DNA from: a virus
IMG/VR virus record: IMGVR_UViG_3300009026_000007
Span: 1 to 64,000 of that record
Direction: 5' to 3' (one strand)
DNA length: 64,000 bases
Shown here: in pieces, positions 5,390-64,000 of the stretch
How the letters are laid out: each line of letters opens with the position of its first letter
How positions within the stretch are numbered: position 1 is the stretch's first letter
Translations under genes and position numbers: made by a program
The notes under the pieces: generated by a model
The model's input: the letters and a program-made list of their open reading frames with translations, nothing else
Told to the model about the DNA's origin: nothing
Database searches by the model: none

Positions 5390-5822
5390 TATCTTCTCTG
5401 GTGCCACTCTGTACATCATCCTAGCTCTTCTGGCTTCAACAGCAGGGTTTGGCTACCTTTCGTATAAGCTGAGCAATGATAAGGCCGTAGCAGTAGCTCA
5501 GCTTAAGACTGCCAATGAAACGGCTGAAGGATATAAAAACTCCCTTAACTTAAAGGATTCTTCTTGTAAGATTGATGACACCTCAGTAGTTGAAGTTGAA
5601 ACAGACAAGAAAGACCTTCAAACTAAAGTTGATGCTGTATCTGATAAATTTGATAAGCTAAAAGTTATTACGGCTACTAAGCCTTCAGTCAAACAAGAGA
5701 TAATTAACCATGAAACTAATGTCTTGCCTGATGATGGGATTCTTAGTCCTAACATTACAAGCTTGCTCAAACTTGGGTGGTGTGACTCCTTCCCCACAGA
5801 TGACGTATGTCGGACCAAGTGA
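5379..5822 (+). CDS. Rz: Inner-membrane spanin (Rz-like)
   Basis: N-terminal TM helix plus coiled coil; overlapped in another frame by a lipoprotein gene. Confidence 0.75.
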   Translation: MFSNIFSGATLYIILALLASTAGFGYLSYKLSNDKAVAVAQLKTANETAEGYKNSLNLKDSSCKIDDTSVVEVETDKKDLQTKVDAVSDKFDKLKVITATKPSVKQEIINHETNVLPDDGILSPNITSLLKLGWCDSFPTDDVCRTK

Positions 5823-24905: not shown

Positions 24906-26624
24906 TTAAAGTGAATCTCCTTCCCATTCATACTGAAGGAGCAAACCTGTACTTTGTTGATACTGAGTCTTAAACTTGTCTTCGCCGCCAAACATTCGAT
25001 TCTTAATACAACTAATAAAGCTGTTTGCCTTAAGATCGCCAAGGGCATGCTTGTTACGTTGAAAACCCATTAGCAACGGGAATGCACGCATAATACCACG
25101 ACTACCTGTGAATTGTGAAGCAAATACTTCACCACCATTTTCGTGGTCCCGTGTGTCCTTTCCTTTTGGTGGGTTCAAGTGACTGTATACACCAATGTGA
25201 ATATCAAGCTCTGCTGCAAGGTTGGCAATCTCAGACGACCATTTGTTGATGAACTCGTTAGCTTCTGCACTTGACAAGTGATCGACAAGACGTGTCATGT
25301 TGTCGATCTCAACAAAGCGTACACCATACTCCATAGCATTATATCGAATAGCTTTTACAATCTCTTCAATATCAAAGCGGTTCTGTGCAGCTTGTCCATC
25401 GCTCTCCCAAAGAAATAGCTTGCCTTCAAGGCTATAGGCTGTCTCTAGATATTGTTCTCGGTTTTCTTGATGAATGCTTGGTACATGATAAGGTACACCA
25501 TCAATCTTACCAGCAATATTGTACAAGGTTGAACGGTTAGGTTCCTCCAACAACACAGAAAACACTTTCTCTTTGTGTTCAATAATGTTGTGTGCAGACT
25601 TCATATGTGATAACAGAGTTTTACCTAGGCCAACACCAGCACCAGTACACGTAGCTTCACCCATTCGCTGAGTGCAGTTCATATCTGTCAGTGCTTGCCA
25701 AGGATAGGCAAAACCTGGAGTAGGTGGTGTGTCATCACGGGACAGTACAGTACTTACCCCAACAACGCCCTCTGAAGTTGGCTTAGCACTTTTCCAAATA
25801 CAGAAGTCTGCAAACAAATCCCCATCACCCTTCAACAAAGCTTCGTTAGCATCCTTAGCGTTTGTTGGGTATGTAGCAACTTTAATGTCTGGAATAATCT
25901 TCTGTACATCTTTTACAGCCTTTTTGCCAGCCTCATCGTTATCAAATACCAAAACTATTTCAGTAAAGAATTTGTCAATCTCTTTACGCATACGGCCAAG
26001 GGTAGTTACAGCACTGCCTACACCATGTGGCAAACTTGTTACCGCAAACTTGTTATACTGGTTATTACGTTTCTTGGCATGCGCTTCTAGCATCATCTCA
26101 AGGGCTCGTGAGTCAAACTCTCCCTCTGTAATATACAATCTTGGCTTTGGTCCATTAGCAGATTTCTTTGCAATCTCCCAGTTAAAAAGATCAGCACCTT
26201 TAATATCACCATGTGACCACATAGCTTTCTTATCAAGCATGATAGATTTATAGCCAAGAAGTTTTCCCTCAAGTGTGTAAGGGAAATTCAAGGTAAAAGG
26301 TGTTTTACCGTCATACTCACTGTACGCAAGTTTTACACCAGCTTTAGCAAAGTAAGTTGGATCAATACCTCGGTGTACAAAAGTAGGAGATTTTAGGTTA
26401 CGAATCTCTTGTACTTCTTCGTAAATTTCGTCTTCTGACTTACGTACTGGTGGCTTAGGTTTAGCTCCGTTGTAAGGGTCTAGGACATAAGCTTCCAATC
26501 CTTTTGAAGCACAACTGAAACAGTAACCAGTGAATAGGTTCTTCCCGTCATCATAGAATACTTGCAAACCTTTATCAGATGTGCAGTGTGGTACATCATG
26601 TTTAATTCGTTCTACGCAGCTCAA
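24906..26624 (-). CDS. DNA primase-helicase (T7 gp4-like)
   Basis: N-terminal Zn finger, TOPRIM ITEGEFD / FDNDEAG / KDANE, Walker A GAGVGLGKT, SHL, GSR. Confidence 0.93.
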   Translation of the reverse strand: MSCVERIKHDVPHCTSDKGLQVFYDDGKNLFTGYCFSCASKGLEAYVLDPYNGAKPKPPVRKSEDEIYEEVQEIRNLKSPTFVHRGIDPTYFAKAGVKLAYSEYDGKTPFTLNFPYTLEGKLLGYKSIMLDKKAMWSHGDIKGADLFNWEIAKKSANGPKPRLYITEGEFDSRALEMMLEAHAKKRNNQYNKFAVTSLPHGVGSAVTTLGRMRKEIDKFFTEIVLVFDNDEAGKKAVKDVQKIIPDIKVATYPTNAKDANEALLKGDGDLFADFCIWKSAKPTSEGVVGVSTVLSRDDTPPTPGFAYPWQALTDMNCTQRMGEATCTGAGVGLGKTLLSHMKSAHNIIEHKEKVFSVLLEEPNRSTLYNIAGKIDGVPYHVPSIHQENREQYLETAYSLEGKLFLWESDGQAAQNRFDIEEIVKAIRYNAMEYGVRFVEIDNMTRLVDHLSSAEANEFINKWSSEIANLAAELDIHIGVYSHLNPPKGKDTRDHENGGEVFASQFTGSRGIMRAFPLLMGFQRNKHALGDLKANSFISCIKNRMFGGEDKFKTQYQQSTGLLLQYEWEGDSL

Positions 26625-31001: not shown

Positions 31002-34000
31002 ATGAACACCCAACAACTAAAACAATTTGATGAATCCTATCAATGGTGGGCTGACTTTCTAGCTGCTCGGCGGGAGGCTATACATGCTATGCATCGTCTA
31101 GGTAAATCGTTTGAGGATATTCAATCCACTTTAGGTTTTACCTATCCAGATCACGCTAAGGCTATTTGGACTGGTACACGTTCTATTTATGAGGAAAAAT
31201 AAATGAAAGTTTGGATAGTGACATACGAAGTGAATGCTTATGACCAAGAAGGTGAATACTTCCAGTGTGGTTTTGTAAATAAACCGACCTACGAACAAGC
31301 TTTAAACTTGCTTGATGGTCTTGGTGTGATTAATAAAAACTATTCTGGCTATGCCGGGGATTACATTGAGAAATGTGTTAATAAATTCCTAGATGGTGGT
31401 GGACGTATTAGTACAGAGCATTGTTGGTACAATCTGAGAGAAGAGGATTTTAAATAGTGCACAACCTAACAACAAACCATATTATCGTCAGAAGGAGAGG
31501 TACTGATGAAAGTAGAAAAATTCACAGATGAAGTTGTAAAGATAGGGGATGCTTTTCTAGCTTTATCTACGATCCATTCTATTAGCCCCGTGTACTTGAA
31601 TGGTATACGTGGATATGGATCTGTTTGGTATTCATTTGATGTACAAAGTGCATTAGGTGGTAGTATAGGTACAAAAATAGGTGGTGAAGCGATTGAGTAT
31701 TGGGAGCTGCCATCAGAGACTTTTAGACAGATTGATCAAGAAGAGCATGAGATGTTTATTAATAAGAAGATTGAACTACTTGTTGTCAGAGATGAGTTAG
31801 TACAGTTATGGTGTGAGTATTTGGAGAATAATAAATGAAAATGAAACAAGTCTCACAAAAAGACTGTGAACACATTATGAATTTATGTGGAGCTTACAAG
31901 TATGGTAATCAATATTATCGAAATGTCAGCGACTGGAGATTAGATACTCTTGTAGGAGAATATAAACAAGGTCAGTGGGAAGTTCCAAACTACCTCTACG
32001 AAGCCTACATTAGGCCGGGTTATGCAGTAAAAAGTACCCCAGAAACCTTGCAAAGCTATTCTCTATGGGATAGACTGTGTTGGTCAATTAAACGTATTTG
32101 GGAGGTATGAAATGCTGGTATATAAAAACATTACCCTTGTAAAATCATCTGATGGTGATTGGGAAGGGTTGTATCTTGATAACCAACTGTACACAGAAAA
32201 TCACAGCCTACGTCTAGAAGATGTGTTTGAAATTATTAATGATCACCACATCTCAGAAGCTGTGTCATTTGAGATTGATTGTGATTGGTTAGTTGAGGAC
32301 CAGGGCGGACTCTTACCAAATTTTCTTAGTGATATTCCTGAAGGTGCAAGGGTGTAATGTCTCTATCAAAATGTGACGGCACATCCTGCCCTGTAAAACA
32401 CAAATGTCAACGCTTCCTACAAACCCCTCTTGTGAAATATCAGAGTTATTTATGCATGATTATAGCTTGTAAGGATATGGACGAAGATGGGTGTAAATTC
32501 TTTATAGAGAGTGAGGAGAAAGAGAATGAATTGGTATAATGAGATTTGTGCTAATGGACTTACTGAGAAACCCCCTAAAGATATACCTAAACCTAAATGG
32601 GCAACACACTCATTTAAAAGAATGGGAAGGATTCTTTATGGCAACCTTTACGGTGAAAGTTTGATTTGGGTTAATGAAGAAAGAACCTTGTATTATACAA
32701 ATGAAGATATAGACCAAGGGTCTTTGTTAAAATTCTAAGAAAATGCCTTGACACACCTCTAAAAACCACCTAAGCTATCCCTACACACAGAATATTGAGG
32801 AGAGATGTTATGAAGAGTCAATTTAACCTACGTCTGAATGAGAGATGTGAATCTCACTCTTGCTCAGAAGGTGATCATGCTAACCGCTGCCCCAAAGATG
32901 GTAAGTTATATGCTGTGTGGGGAATTGGTATTGAGTACAATGATCGGCACGAGTATTATCTTTGCGAAGAGGGTGTCAGTATTGATGTAAATCATGGGTT
33001 TACAGTTCAGGAGATTACAGAATGAAGCAACCAAAGAAATCAGCCACTGTATCGGTGAAAGCATCCCAACAACAAATCCTAGACGCACAGAAATGGCTAC
33101 AGTTTGTAGCCCATTGCCAAATCAAGTGGGAATGTCTCTCACCAGATTGGCAAGAGTTCTATTACAATATGGGTGATACGGGCTCTTCTAGTGAACTGTT
33201 GAATGAGTCTATTAGTAAAGCTATTGAAGGAGATAAAGAATGAGTAAAATTAAGCTGTTATACTTCAAACCAAGTGGTAAGTGGGGTTATGAAGGTGAAC
33301 TTGAATGGGTTGATCATAGTTCTATGTTTTCGCTAAGGGAGCATGTAAGAAATCTAACTGCTACTAATAATCTTCCAGGCTTATCTTCTGGTTCTTGGGA
33401 AGGGCCAATTTACATTGATGCATCTGAACACCCTCTAGGGTTTCCGCAATTAATTATTTAAGGTCAATTAAACATGAACATCCTACAATTACGTGACACA
33501 CTCCGCCAAGCAGAACAAGCTTACACTAAAGCTAAAACTAGCTTGGACGGGAGTATTGAATTAATCCAAGCAAAGTCAGCTTTGAAAGATGCAAGGTTTA
33601 ATTATGCAGAGGCTTGCCAAGATCTTGTTGAGGAAATGATAATGATGGGAGAATTGAAATGAATCCTAAATATTCACAAGGTGAATCTATTATTTTGCAA
33701 AGTCTCTCTTCACCAGAAAGTAATGGTGAGTATACAATTCGTCAGGTAGTAAAACAGGGTGAAATGTATAAGTGTAGACATGCTGGCTGGGATGTTATAA
33801 ACGTTGAAGGATTGGGATATATTCTTGAGGAAATTGTAACACTTTCAGAAGCTGACGACGACACACCGATTGAAGGCATGTGGGCAGAATCAGCCTTACG
33901 TAAACGTCATGAACCTTCCCAAATGTCTTTCCAATCCCTTATCCAAAGTATCAATAGTCCAGTGAAACAAGAGAGTTAGCCATGAAACTCCTAAAAGATA

Positions 34001-60694: not shown

Positions 60695-61225
60695 ATGAAA
60701 TTTGTAGAGTATATGAAAATCAGAAATACCAACCCCAAGAAAAAGAATAGTCTTAGTACAGCCGAGGCAAACATTTTGGGAGTTGATATGAGTATCAGAG
60801 GCTGGATGACCAAAGATACCAATCTAACAGACGATCAGGTAGAGAGGGCAGTTGACTTCGCACTTAAGTCTAAATTTATGAGGCAAGGTGTTAAAGATAA
60901 CCTGCGTCCACTGTATATGAAACAACTTGACGGTATGGACTCACAGTGCGTGTATCTCATGGAAAATGAACTAGGTATGTTGAAAATTGGCATTAGTAAT
61001 AATCCAATAAAACGTGCAAGGTCACTAAGCACAGGCAGTGGATTATCTGTAAATCTGCTTTGTTATTGGCAGATAGCTAATCCGGCAAGAAGTACAGAGG
61101 CAAAACTTCATAGACTATTCAATCAATTCAAAGTAAGTGGTGAATGGTTTAAGAGGGATAGTTTCGACAAAGAAGACATTGAATCAAACTTTAATTTTTC
61201 TTTTATTAGAAAAGATTTTGATTGA
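60695..61225 (+). CDS. GIY-YIG (T5orf172/MUG113-like) endonuclease
   Basis: VYLM.....LKIGISNNP.KR...L.TG...E..LH..F......GEWF. Confidence 0.85.
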   Translation: MKFVEYMKIRNTNPKKKNSLSTAEANILGVDMSIRGWMTKDTNLTDDQVERAVDFALKSKFMRQGVKDNLRPLYMKQLDGMDSQCVYLMENELGMLKIGISNNPIKRARSLSTGSGLSVNLLCYWQIANPARSTEAKLHRLFNQFKVSGEWFKRDSFDKEDIESNFNFSFIRKDFD

Positions 61226-61472
61226 TGCTTGACAAATAGCATTTGAGTATGTTTTACTAACAACTTGAACTTAAACAACGGAGTCCACATTATGGGCGAG
61301 ATTTGCTTTTGCTCACAATGTGGGCGTATTAATAACTATTGTGTATGTGATATCATTGTTGAGTATTTGGAAGATAATGACCCCGACTTCAAATTTGAGT
61401 GGGCTCATGAGTCAACGACAGAATTGAAGTCAACATCATTTAGAATTATTTTACCAATCTATGAATAAATAC

Positions 61473-61501
61473 TTGACAAATAACTATTATTCATATAAAC
61501 T
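61473..61501 (+). promoter_or_regulatory. sigma70-type promoter of the ncRNA/tRNA locus
   Basis: TTGACA-17-TAAACT followed by ORF-free structured sequence. Confidence 0.7.
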
Positions 61502-61524
61502 AAAAGAACTGAATCAGAAAAGAT

Positions 61525-61885
61525 TTATGAGAAGTCAGATAGCCTTCCCCTCTTAGACATACGAGCTTTGAGATTCGTGAGGTTATCGAAAGGTCAGAAC
61601 ACCACTGACGGAAGCCACCGGTGTAGATGTATTTATACATACTATCTGGTCTGTCGCTGACACAGCCTCTCACTTAACACATTCAATCTTGACGAAGATT
61701 GTCTAATTCCCTTAAAGGGGCTTGAAGAATTCTGACGAGAGTTTAAAGTCTTCCCTTTGTGTGACGGGGAGCAATGAATTATGGGCTGCGCAACAGCCAT
61801 TAAAAACAAGTAACGGTAAGACCTTTTCAGCAAGTCTCCCTTTGTGGGGTTTGTTACATTGTCCCTGTTGCGACATCCGGCGACT
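61525..61885 (+). ncRNA. Putative structured RNA(s)
   Basis: Many nested stems: TGAGA/TCTCA, CAGATAG/CTATCTG, CTTCC/GGAAG, GTCAG/CTGAC, CAATCTT/AAGATTG, GGCTG-CGCAA-CAGCC, GTAAC/GTTAC. Confidence 0.45.
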
Positions 61886-61905
61886 TGACTAAAGAGGTCT
61901 TATTT

Positions 61906-62472
61906 ATGAAAATTGAGCTAAAAGAGCCTTATTCTTCTGATTGGAAACTTGGTTATTTGAGAATTTCTAGTTTAGATGGAAGAAAAAGATTAGATTTATT
62001 TAATTCAAGTACAGAAAGAACGACTACAGCTTTTGCTAGATATTTAATGTCAGTTAAAATTGGAAGGTATTTGACAGAAGATGAAGAAGCTGATCACATA
62101 GATAATGATGCAACAAATGATTCAATAGAAAATCTACAAGTACTTAGTGTAGAGGAACATAAAGCTAAGACTAAAAGATTCGTTGAGGGTCGAATATTTA
62201 AAACCTGTGTTTGTAGTTATTGTGGTATAGAATTTGAAAGGGAAGTCAGACAAATTAAGTCTGATAAAACCTTGTGTTCAAGGTCTTGTAATGCAAAATA
62301 CAACAGGGAGTTTGGGTCTTGGACCGGAAAGCTCAAAAAGCACACCCAAGAAGAAGTAGATAAAATAGTGGAGCTAAGAGCTTCGGGTTTATCAGACTAT
62401 AAAATATCCGATATAATTGGTATTCATAGGTCTAAAATACAAAGACTTCGTATTGAGCTTGGTATTAAATAG
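61906..62472 (+). CDS. HNH homing endonuclease with zinc finger and HTH
   Basis: ARYLMS..IGRYL...E.ADHIDND.TND.IENLQVL....H..KT; CSYCG...CSRSC; C-terminal HTH. Confidence 0.88.
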   Translation: MKIELKEPYSSDWKLGYLRISSLDGRKRLDLFNSSTERTTTAFARYLMSVKIGRYLTEDEEADHIDNDATNDSIENLQVLSVEEHKAKTKRFVEGRIFKTCVCSYCGIEFEREVRQIKSDKTLCSRSCNAKYNREFGSWTGKLKKHTQEEVDKIVELRASGLSDYKISDIIGIHRSKIQRLRIELGIK

Positions 62473-62558
62473 TCTCTGTCCCTCACGAGGTCTTCTAAGC
62501 CTTTGACATTAAACTAGAGGATGGATGTCACGGAGTTCGATACTTCCAGAGACTACCA
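62471..62558 (+). tRNA. Non-canonical tRNA-Arg(UCU)-like RNA: 8-bp acceptor, 4-bp T-stem, no local D-arm, long variable arm, encoded CCA
   Basis: AGTCTCTG/CAGAGACT-A-CCA; GAGGT-CTTCTAA-GCCTT anticodon arm; TGACATT/GATGTCA variable stem; GGAG-TTCGATA-CTTC T-arm. Confidence 0.7.
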
Positions 62559-62608
62559 GTTTCACCCACAATCACTAAGATTAACTCTAAAAAGATTGTG
62601 GTATTCAC

Positions 62609-62746
62609 GCTGTCATTTTCCTCTCCTAAGACAGCACTTAAGATATTCTCTGTTCCTCCTCTCTCTCCTCGCAGAGAATATCTTCTGGCCTTGGATAGAT
62701 TATACTAGTACTCTCCTTCTAGTGTAATCTTCGCTAACAGGGCCAT
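62609..62746 (+). ncRNA. Triple-hairpin RNA with anti-Shine-Dalgarno (CUCUCCU) loops
   Basis: Stems 62609-62635, 62640-62684 and 62697-62730, each with a loop containing CTCTCCT. Confidence 0.6.
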
Positions 62747-62817
62747 TTCTAAATAATCTTGTTGTTCTTTAACGATAATGTCAGTGGTCTGATCAGGATT
62801 ATTTAGAAATTAATAGT

Positions 62818-63088
62818 AAGTAATATTTCTCATGTGTTTTAAAACCTAGAGCTAACTAGGAAGTTCGAATACTTATCTCCGCAAGCGGCTTCTGATGACT
62901 AAAGTAGGATTAATTACCCGAAAAGGTTGGTAGGAAGCTCTATTCATTAGAATTGAAGACAATAGCCAGAGTTAATCACTGTGCCGTACTGGAGTTGTGA
63001 AGCTAATGTAGGTTGGGGACGGTTGATTACCTAAAAGAGATAGAGTTGGAGATGAGCACCAACTAAAACACAGCAGAAATATTATTTA
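62818..63088 (+). ncRNA. Putative structured RNA of about 270 nt
   Basis: Closing stems AAGTAATATTTCT/AGAAATATTATTT and TGTGTTTTA/TAAAACACA enclose several hairpins. Confidence 0.45.
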
Positions 63089-63102
63089 TAGGAATATATG
63101 AC

Positions 63103-63510
63103 ATGGCTAATAAGCAGCCCCATACAGATAAACAAAAAGCAACACGCTTTGATGGTGAAAAAAGTAATAGAAATAACAAAGGCAATTCTTCTACTCGTAT
63201 CAAGAAAAGTAAGTTGCGTGAACTGGCTGACAAACTTATTGAACGTCAGGATATTGCCTTGCAATTGATTGACAAGAGTTTAAAGAGCGAAGAAGTTAAC
63301 CCGGACGCTGTAGCAAGTGCTAAGTGGATCATTACTTCAATCAATTCCGTTGTCAAGAGTGCTTCAGCAGAAGAGCTTGGTAGCTTCAATGCTCGCTTGA
63401 AAGGTAAGCGGGATGATGAAGAAGCTGAACAAACTCCTACTGAAATCAGTAAAGAATTGAAACCCCGTTTGAGTTTGGTTTATGTTGACCCCGGCGAAGA
63501 CGATGATTAA
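63103..63510 (+). CDS. Probable terminase small subunit
   Basis: ATRF.G..SN.NNKG N-terminal motif, helical core, position in the RNA-gene region that precedes packaging genes in related myoviruses. Confidence 0.5.
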   Translation: MANKQPHTDKQKATRFDGEKSNRNNKGNSSTRIKKSKLRELADKLIERQDIALQLIDKSLKSEEVNPDAVASAKWIITSINSVVKSASAEELGSFNARLKGKRDDEEAEQTPTEISKELKPRLSLVYVDPGEDDD

Positions 63511-63524
63511 GATTTAAAGAACGT

Positions 63525-64000
63525 CCTACAGAGCGAGTGAATATCGAAACTGGACCTTAGAGGTCGTTCTCTGTAAGAAATAGGTAAATACCTTTGGTTT
63601 GTGAGGAGCCACCACTAAAGTACAGAAAGCCCTAGACGTGAGTTTAGGCGAGCTACTGATACATACTTAAATGGGTAACTTTTCACGCTAAGCCCTAGGC
63701 TGAAGCCACTTTATGTGGGGGTGGTTTAGAGTTGTTTACCGACCTTATTAATTCCTTGTGTGTGCAGACGTACCCCAGCAATTTCTGCATGTTTGTTGCT
63801 GTAGGGTGAGAGCAAGGAAACCTAACTAGATCGCAAGGTCTGGTATCTCAGCTAGTTCCTGAGACCCCGGCATTCTGGCGGATGCCTGTTGTAAGACACT
63901 ACGGACAGACGTGTAGGGTTGTGAATCCCGTCATGAATCTGAGTAGGGCACTCATACTAATTTCACCTCAGAAAATGCCCACCTATTCCAAGGGTCTATA
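63525..64000 (+). ncRNA. Putative large structured RNA (may extend beyond window)
   Basis: No long ORF; GNRA-capped hairpins CCTAGAC-GTGA-GTTTAGG and CTAGATC-GCAA-GGTCTGG, plus TTCCTTG/CAAGGAA, CTCAG/CTGAG, GGCATTC/GGATGCC. Confidence 0.45.

Follow-up and report, generated by a model that had tools for sequence, protein, structure and literature searches.

A conserved, tRNA-linked hairpin RNA with loops complementary to Shine-Dalgarno sequences in uncultured phages

The three-hairpin core

The DNA analyzed here (the window) is the first 64 kb (64,000 nucleotides, nt) of an 88.5-kb virus record with 39.6% G+C (IMG/VR record IMGVR_UViG_3300009026_000007). Between 61.5 and 64.1 kb, ahead of a block of structural genes, the sequence is mainly non-coding, and this region holds the subject of the present study, a conserved unit of ~250 nt on the + strand (62559-62810). 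Its core (62609-62746) consists of three hairpins whose loops display CUCUCCU, a complement of the Shine-Dalgarno (SD) sequences used by the phage itself. We regard it as practically certain that the unit is a real and conserved RNA, encoded on the + strand and linked to transfer RNA (tRNA) genes. The features of the core are as follows:

62609-62635, + strand: hairpin H1, 6-bp stem and 15-nt loop, CUCUCCU at 62621-62627
62640-62684, + strand: hairpin H2, 14-bp stem and 17-nt all-pyrimidine loop, CUCUCCU at 62663-62669
62686-62746, + strand: whole H3 domain, composed of an outer stem, an inner hairpin and the conserved 3' internal loop UUCGCUAACA
62686-62693 paired with 62739-62746, + strand: H3 outer stem, 8 bp including G-U pairs
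62697-62730, + strand: H3 hairpin, 12-bp stem and 10-nt loop, CUCUCCU at 62711-62717

The + strand of 62600-62760 folded into three consecutive hairpins with a minimum free energy of -50.9 kcal/mol, compared with -25.7 ± 3.5 kcal/mol for 200 dinucleotide shuffles (z = -7.2; 0 of 200 as stable). Each of the three CUCUCCU motifs had an unpaired probability of at least 0.99 in the ensemble. An earlier inspection of the letters alone (the sequence-only reading) had outlined the element as 62609-62746, with stems of 6, 13 and 12 bp and CUCUCCU in every loop. The fold, the three loop motifs and the 6- and 12-bp stems were recovered; H2 has 14 bp instead of 13, and the proposed span covers only the core of the conserved unit. 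Outside the loops, the conserved single-stranded pieces are the ACUUAAAGA linker and the AACAGGG internal loop, the latter appearing as a conserved AacAggG in the H3 domain of the model consensus.

Conservation, covariation and strand

An open reading frame (ORF) of 135 amino acids (aa) follows the hairpin RNA, and homologues of its protein gave 80 loci from IMG/VR and Joint Genome Institute metagenomes, 59 of them non-redundant. A crude hairpin scan found a cluster of at least three CU-loop hairpins in 62 of 81 stored loci, including the window's own copy (L001). Covariance model R1 was built from five close sequences and matched 61 places, one per source and each on the strand of the gene. 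Model R2 was rebuilt from the R1 matches and, at E ≤ 0.01, recovered the RNA at 69 of the 80 syntenic loci, always on the gene strand, as well as in the window and in a new contig (L097). Among the 11 loci without an R2 match, three offer hardly any upstream sequence or none (L025, L078, L045), in one the RNA sits further upstream in the genome (L059), two are six-hairpin variants with weak R1 matches (L010, L033) and one is a loop variant (L062); in the remaining four, nothing was found in the flank examined. Five or six CU-loop hairpins in a row, not three, were seen in L010, L033, L074 and L075. Exactly one R2 copy (E ≤ 0.01) was present in 13 of 14 complete related genomes, the exception being G001 (the genome of L062), and the members all lie on phage contigs of ~80-93 kb.

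Identical sequences were counted once, which reduced 61 sequences to 45 (alignment A5) and 71 to 52 (alignment A6). In A5, 96.0% of 1387 cells were in standard pairs compared with 60.9% in shuffles (0 of 500 shuffles reached the observed value), and 38 of 39 pairs had changed on both sides. When partners were slid by 1-3 columns, 35-47% were paired. A5 was fitted to the model, which favors the structure; the margin is nonetheless very large. Changes on both sides were found for 6/6 pairs of helix 1 (H1, 96.4% paired), 14/14 pairs of helices 2-3 (H2) and 18/19 pairs of helices 4-6 (the H3 domain).

Strand was assigned from the same 45 members, in which G-U or U-G occupied 113 cells and A-C or C-A only 15, so that on the other strand only 88.9% of cells would pair, compared with 96.0%. 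In 39 of the 45 the + strand was the more stable one, and the reverse strand of 62600-62760 gave z = -3.0. The abutting tRNAs and the flanking genes all lie on the + strand, as does the RNA. The CU-rich strand, which the sequence-only reading had taken for the RNA, is thereby upheld.

The family is absent from Rfam 15 and belongs to no catalogued family: nothing in the window reached a gathering score, and permissive filters returned sub-threshold, chance-level matches only. No R2 match was obtained in the cultured relatives PAK_P3, vB_PsaM_M1, VCM, 16Q and Amme-3, with G000 matching as a positive control. IMG/VR was also scanned with a triple-CTCTCCT pattern, a scan that says nothing on absence elsewhere. 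Among the 80 loci listed, at least four fit the model (E ≤ 0.1) and at least three are real members, namely two contigs already in the set and L097. L091, a model match, and five other inspected pattern loci among the matches listed were rejected as low-complexity sequence or tandem repeats. The pattern scan of 185,579 cellular species genomes, which would catch just 14 of the 52 distinct members, returned 80 matches, close to what chance alone would give (own estimate), and none fit the model. Literature searches found no description of the RNA; the supplementary tables of the PAK_P3 papers lay outside the search and may hold details of small-RNA sequences.

The complete unit and its junction with tRNAs

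The core is enclosed in a longer unit that runs from a 5' motif through a further hairpin (H0) and the three CU-loop hairpins to a Y-shaped hairpin (H4). The flanking features are the following:

62471-62558, + strand: tRNA-like element with an encoded CCA at 62556-62558 and an 8-bp acceptor-like stem, directly 5' of the hairpin RNA
62559-62566, + strand: 5' boundary motif GUUUCACC
62566-62601, + strand: H0, 8 bp plus a small inner stem (single-sequence fold)
62747-62810, + strand: H4, Y-shaped; AU-rich lower stem of 16-17 bp plus two small arms; U tract absent

A GTTTCACC-like motif was located 42-66 nt before the core (H1) in 40 of 52 distinct members, and the sequence upstream of it was unrelated from member to member. 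Contigs from three sequencing runs break or switch context exactly at 62558. GUUUCACC is likely to be the 5' end or a processing site, and likewise a mosaic breakpoint.

tRNAs were found at the same junction. In 9 of the 52 distinct members a tRNA called by ARAGORN (Thr, Arg, Gly, Leu or Pro) has its last base directly next to the G of GTTTCACC (gap of 0 nt), and Rfam tRNAs occupy this position in L014, L056 and L020. CCA directly precedes the motif in 13 of the 40 motif-bearing members, among them the window, whose tRNA-like element stands where relatives carry genuine tRNAs; neither ARAGORN nor Rfam called a tRNA in this element (62471-62558). The sequence-only reading had placed the RNA behind a tRNA-like RNA, which agrees with these junctions.

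H0 was supported by single-sequence folds, in which the 48 nt before H1 formed at least 6 bp in 43 of 48 distinct members (mean z = -2.3; 21 different stem starts). Its covariation, counted on a plain MAFFT alignment with the window's fold supplied, was not significant (50% vs 48%) because that alignment was out of register. H4 appeared in single-sequence folds of most of 45 members with differing stem sequences. For a test of H4, 46 distinct sequences were aligned with plain MAFFT and the window's own fold was supplied: pairing was 78.4% compared with 66.7% in shuffles (0 of 500 reached it), 20 of 27 pairs had changed on both sides, and the best slid control gave 60.7%. When run on the plain MAFFT alignment of either hairpin, RNAalifold predicted 0 pairs. 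Both sets exclude the minus-strand match L097 and loci with too little flank.

Neither strand of 62558-62811 held a terminator-like site. An intrinsic terminator array was ruled out on the same ground, there being no G+C-rich hairpin followed by a U tract in that interval, and a promoter and terminator scan gave nothing specific to the element. Given the tRNA junction, the breakpoint at 62558 and the lack of a terminator, the RNA looks like a cassette co-transcribed with the tRNA and freed by processing. H4 may be the 3' processing site, for example for RNase III; its long AU-rich stem appears to resemble phage RNase III sites, and the junction sequence (A-G then U-U-U) presumably resembles the preference of RNase E.

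Genome setting

The structural block extends from ~64 kb to the end of the record and over 1-6.6 kb, and encodes tail fiber, large terminase (TerL, 68349-69824), portal, protease, major head, sheath, tape measure and tail proteins. Other features of the region ahead of it are listed below:

61473-61501: sigma-70-like promoter match
61885-62472: HNH endonuclease ORF (Pfam HNH_3)
63992-64067: tRNA-Met (CAU)

The tRNA-Met crosses the window end, and for this reason ARAGORN found no tRNA when run on the window only. The HNH ORF sits among RNA genes and looks like a mobile insertion; it is missing in a relative, where a contig has 162 other nucleotides in place of the sequence between 61780 and 62467. 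The 135-aa ORF had no family match in Pfam or PHROG, its protein had no match in phage records by tblastn and no similarity to the PAK_P3 DUF5681 protein, and a 'terS' label for the gene could not be confirmed. A blastn search of 61000-64000 against phage records returned the HNH gene and a tRNA-like piece only. The closest cultured phages, which infect Pseudomonas, are only distantly related, with TerL identities of 47% to vB_PsaM_M1 and 39% to PAK_P3-type phages; the DNA polymerase gene has 73% DNA identity to VCM.

Complementarity of the loops to Shine-Dalgarno sequences

The loops kept their sequence while the stems varied freely: UCUCC was present in loops 1, 2 and 3 of 37, 40 and 40 of the 45 sequences, and CUCUCCU in 30, 29 and 35. 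That the loops would be conserved in relatives thus proved correct, but the conserved motif is UCUCC(U) and not the canonical anti-SD CCUCC, which occurred in only 15, 12 and 1 of the 45. The difference affects pairing. By the pairing rules, the ribosome's CCUCCU pairs fully only with AGGAGG and has a mismatch with AGGAGA; UCUCCU, with U as its first base, is a full match for AGGAGA and needs a G-U wobble to pair with AGGAGG.

The 88.5-kb genome holds 21 AGGAGAG sites on both strands, three of which are the loops read on the opposite strand. Of the 18 non-self sites, at least 15 lie 2-8 nt before ATG or GTG, including those at 31493, 32798 and 41812, which had been named as examples when the complementarity to the phage's own SD sequences was first proposed. 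Among the window's genes with an AGGAGAG SD are MazG-like and further nucleotide-metabolism genes, as well as small ORFs without known function. Among 166 crude gene calls in this genome, AGGAGA preceded 27 starts, AGGAGAG 12 and AGGAGG 3. A loop duplex of -10 kcal/mol or lower was predicted at 62 of 166 start regions compared with 12 of 141 internal control windows, and the 16S-tail motif reached this value at 27; the calculation is simple and ignores target structure.

SD usage differed between gene classes. In the window's genome AGGAGA preceded 2 of 41 structural-block genes and 25 of 125 genes elsewhere. Genes of 13 further complete genomes were classed by homology to this genome, with the following counts:

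Structural homologues: 414 genes, 28 with AGGAGA, 23 with AGGAGG
All other genes: 1615 genes, 261 with AGGAGA, 48 with AGGAGG

Between these classes the AGGAGA share differed with Fisher p = 2e-7 and the A:G ratio with p = 6e-6, p-values that overstate independence when pooled because the genomes are related. Counted by genome, structural genes had the lower AGGAGA share in 11 of 14 genomes and the higher one in 2, with no difference in 1. Core structural groups also paired more weakly with the loops of their own genome than other conserved groups did (-7.5 vs -9.0 kcal/mol; Mann-Whitney p = 0.008).

The variant element of G001 (L062, 2540-2760) displays UUCCUCCUA in its loops; a TTGACA-17-TATATT promoter-like site immediately precedes it, and a tRNA is absent. 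In G001, AGGAGG preceded 13 and AGGAGA 19 genes; in three CUCUCCU genomes of the same G+C content the numbers were 13 and 77 (p = 0.005). This shift hints at the co-variation that would be expected if the loops read the phage's own SD sequences.

Proposed function

The hairpin tips expose the complement of the phage's own ribosome-binding sites, and the RNA therefore probably damps translation. That it masks SD sequences by anti-SD pairing, whatever the targets, has in our estimate a somewhat better than even chance; to the more specific reading, in which the targets are the phage's own non-structural genes, we assign a probability of roughly 0.4.

From the observed structure, conservation, strand, loop accessibility, tRNA adjacency and SD statistics we infer a course of discrete transcription, processing, pairing in vivo and repression. 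A non-coding RNA of ~250 nt, at the start of the structural block, would be co-transcribed with the tRNA cluster from the + strand and cut out of the longer transcript. The G that comes after CCA of the preceding tRNA or tRNA-like element would become its 5' end, and its 3' end would be formed within the long H4 hairpin or beyond it. The (C)CUCUCCU loops would then pair in trans with SD sequences of the AGGAGA(G) type, compete with the 16S ribosomal RNA (rRNA) tail and lower translation initiation. Because UCUCCU is a perfect partner of AGGAGA and a wobble partner of AGGAGG, the RNA would act preferentially on non-structural (early or middle) phage genes and spare structural ones. The outcome would be an RNA-based class switch, with a logic comparable to that of T4 RegB. 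As a tentative and rather doubtful extension, the RNA might be a phage-made stand-in for the anti-SD tail: its loops would beat the 16S tail at AGGAGA starts and the ribosome would win at AGGAGG and weak sites, which would switch translation from early or middle to late genes, with loops and SD usage co-evolving.

Lytic phages reprogram translation with proteins, and to our knowledge there is almost no regulatory RNA of a virulent phage with a known role. The present RNA is a sharply defined family, found once per genome across a clade of uncultured phages of roughly 90 kb, and its design points at ribosome-binding sites. If pairing with non-structural SD sequences is true, it would amount to an RNA-based temporal switch of translation, would explain the preference of these phages for AGGAGA over AGGAGG, and would give a further reason for the extra RNAs in phage tRNA clusters. 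The structural result holds whichever function applies.

Several points weigh against pairing with the phage's own non-structural genes. The SD bias itself may come from late genes being selected for the ribosome's best SD, with others drifting to A at 40% G+C. The gene calls and start choices were crude, and the presence of an SD entered into the choice of starts. The co-variation of loops and SD sequences comes from a single lineage (a search for more G001-like phages found none), and G003 keeps CUCUCCU loops though its commonest 7-mer is AGGAGAA, which differs at the seventh position. No clear conserved target emerged: the best orthologous group, a primase/helicase gene (24906-26624, minus strand), had a mean rank only at the 15th percentile over 14 genomes. 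The promoter match at 61473-61501 would suit early as well as late transcription. Contigs from soil and wastewater RNA libraries cover 62558-62668 and 62558-62750 of near relatives, in assemblies without ends or strand; one of them is a 4.4-kb piece of a relative's genome, and they may be DNA. All of these runs (X21, X22, X18) are assembled contigs, and the cover of 62558-62750 is therefore not evidence of transcription. The shares of matching words in sequencing runs were small, and no habitat is claimed from them.

Alternative explanations

An unlikely alternative, and the one that survives best, is that the RNA acts as a decoy or sponge and captures a protein that binds pyrimidine-rich single strands, with the loops as protein sites and not pairing sites. 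Candidates include ribosomal protein S1, Rho (which loads at YC-rich sites), a cold-shock protein, a factor of the 16S 3' tail and a phage protein. A set of invariant pyrimidine loops, regularly spaced and borne on variable stems, would suit such a role, and the multi-site design is like that of the RsmY/RsmZ sponges; SD pairing, moreover, leaves the conservation of the ACUUAAAGA linker and the AACAGGG internal loop unexplained. Against a sponge, no binding protein emerged and the neighboring 135-aa gene is without a family match. The motif also complements the genome's most frequent SD exactly and shifts with SD usage in G001, which is unexpected for a protein site.

It is also rather improbable that the element is a cis-acting part of a polycistronic transcript, either as processing or stability hairpins for the tRNA cluster or as a leader of the 135-aa gene. 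The missing spacer between RNA and tRNAs would fit, as would the scan, in which no promoter or terminator of its own was found, the end of H4 ~20-30 nt before the ATG of the 135-aa gene in many relatives, and the small RNAs of PAK_P3, which in the available text of one study lack their own start sites and are made by processing (PMC10914365). The distance to the 135-aa gene, however, ranges from ~25 nt to more than 2.7 kb, and plain processing hairpins do not need an invariant loop motif. The start region of the 135-aa gene is the poorest loop complement of all conserved genes (mean percentile 0.85), and sequestering of its SD in cis is therefore unlikely.

Host mRNAs could instead be the main targets of anti-SD pairing, with an abundant RNA masking host SD sequences in host shut-off, a version to which we give small odds. 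The loops would pair with any SD that contains AGGAG (AGGAGG through the G-U wobble of UCUCCU), and three to six redundant loops fit a broad titrating role. The phage's own SD sequences, however, are the best complements and are not avoided, so that the phage would inhibit itself; the nearest cultured relatives are Pseudomonas phages with only 39-47% TerL identity.

Very improbable is the antisense alternative offered by the sequence-only reading, in which AGGAGAG (GGA) loops of the opposite strand would sponge CsrA/RsmA as RsmY/RsmZ do: the reverse complement puts A-GGA motifs in three hairpin loops and antisense RNAs are annotated in the equivalent region of PAK_P3, but the G-U counts, the fold stabilities and the + orientation of tRNAs and flanking genes given above all disfavor it, and no RsmY/RsmZ match overlaps the element (the sole RsmY match, with 16.8 bits, lies at 62138-62288).

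Comparison with known systems

Small RNAs that mask SD sequences in trans generally have an accessible C/U-rich segment complementary to the SD, and segments of this kind are what the three loops present. Cuckoo RNAs, in the available part of their description, consist of 2-4 adjacent hairpins with very variable stems and a constant, anti-SD-like pyrimidine loop, CCUCCUCCC (PMC4615179). The sequence-only reading had likened the element to this group (Rfam RF02344, ar14; RSs0680/CcsR, SmelC397/NfeR1). The likeness in design stands, with an array of adjacent hairpins (here three, and 4-6 in some relatives), variable stems and a constant anti-SD-like loop, and ar14 was the only Rfam family that aligned across the whole core. 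Membership does not: the window scored 23.6 bits (E = 0.22, permissive filters) compared with a gathering cut-off of 58.8, ar14 gave no match at E ≤ 1 in 10 other members, and the loops are (C)CUCUCCU, with none of the 52 distinct members holding CCUCCUCCC, CCTCCTCCC or even CCTCCTCC. Cuckoo RNAs are carried by alphaproteobacterial chromosomes and plasmids; the present RNA occurs in lytic-type phage genomes, where it is joined to the 3' end of a tRNA and has the conserved hairpins H0 and H4 on either side of its core. Score, loop motif and carrier genomes thus rule out membership in cuckoo/ar14, and as far as the sequences tell, the RNA shows no sign of common descent with cuckoo RNAs.

PAK_P3, a distant phage of ~88 kb, makes two small RNAs (sRNA1/ncRNA1 and sRNA2/ncRNA2) that are reported, in those parts of the two studies that were available, to be abundant, late (a 91-fold and a 12-fold rise), processed and without their own start sites (PMC4933390, PMC10914365). 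Their neighborhood is equivalent, among tRNAs just before the terminase gene, and on what these sources offer the link is one of analogy only. Unlike the RNA described here, they have no CU-rich loops, and R2 has no match in the whole PAK_P3 record. A TTCACCACAC..ACGAA stretch in the 5' part of sRNA1 (L082, 1349-1431) recurs in the 5' motif and H0 of L002-type members, a likeness that may reflect remote kinship or chance.

The closest functional precedent, to judge by the accessible portion of its literature, is T4 RegB, which inactivates early mRNAs at GGAG SD sequences and spares most middle and all late ones (PMC3014915). The proposed logic is the same, in that the SD motif of one temporal class would be recognized. 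RegB is a protein nuclease that needs S1 and cuts; here the agent would be an RNA that masks SD sequences.

A tRNA-derived RNA, the 3' external transcribed spacer of E. coli leuZ, sponges other small RNAs. T4 band C/D RNAs are also named as tRNA-linked small RNAs in the available text of another study (PMC4933390). What they share with the present RNA is release from tRNA precursors, which is predicted here; neither the leuZ spacer nor the T4 band C/D RNAs are known to have an array of anti-SD loops.

Other non-coding elements of the region

A structured non-coding stretch adjoins the unit at 62821-63084. An estuary metatranscriptome run has a stand-alone 218-nt contig identical to 62856-63073, and the stretch, which had no Rfam match, may give rise to a stable RNA. 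Another conserved non-coding element was found, with 76-83% likeness, at 61773-61903 of the window and in L002 (3092-3221), L004 (4432-4534) and L005 (4406-4534). Since the L004 and L005 copies lie downstream and not upstream of the 135-aa gene, the RNA modules of the region are shuffled between relatives. In L075, from a related phage, a group I intron (Rfam RF00028, 93.1 bits) was found at 5528-5810, ~2.1 kb downstream of the homologue of the 135-aa gene.

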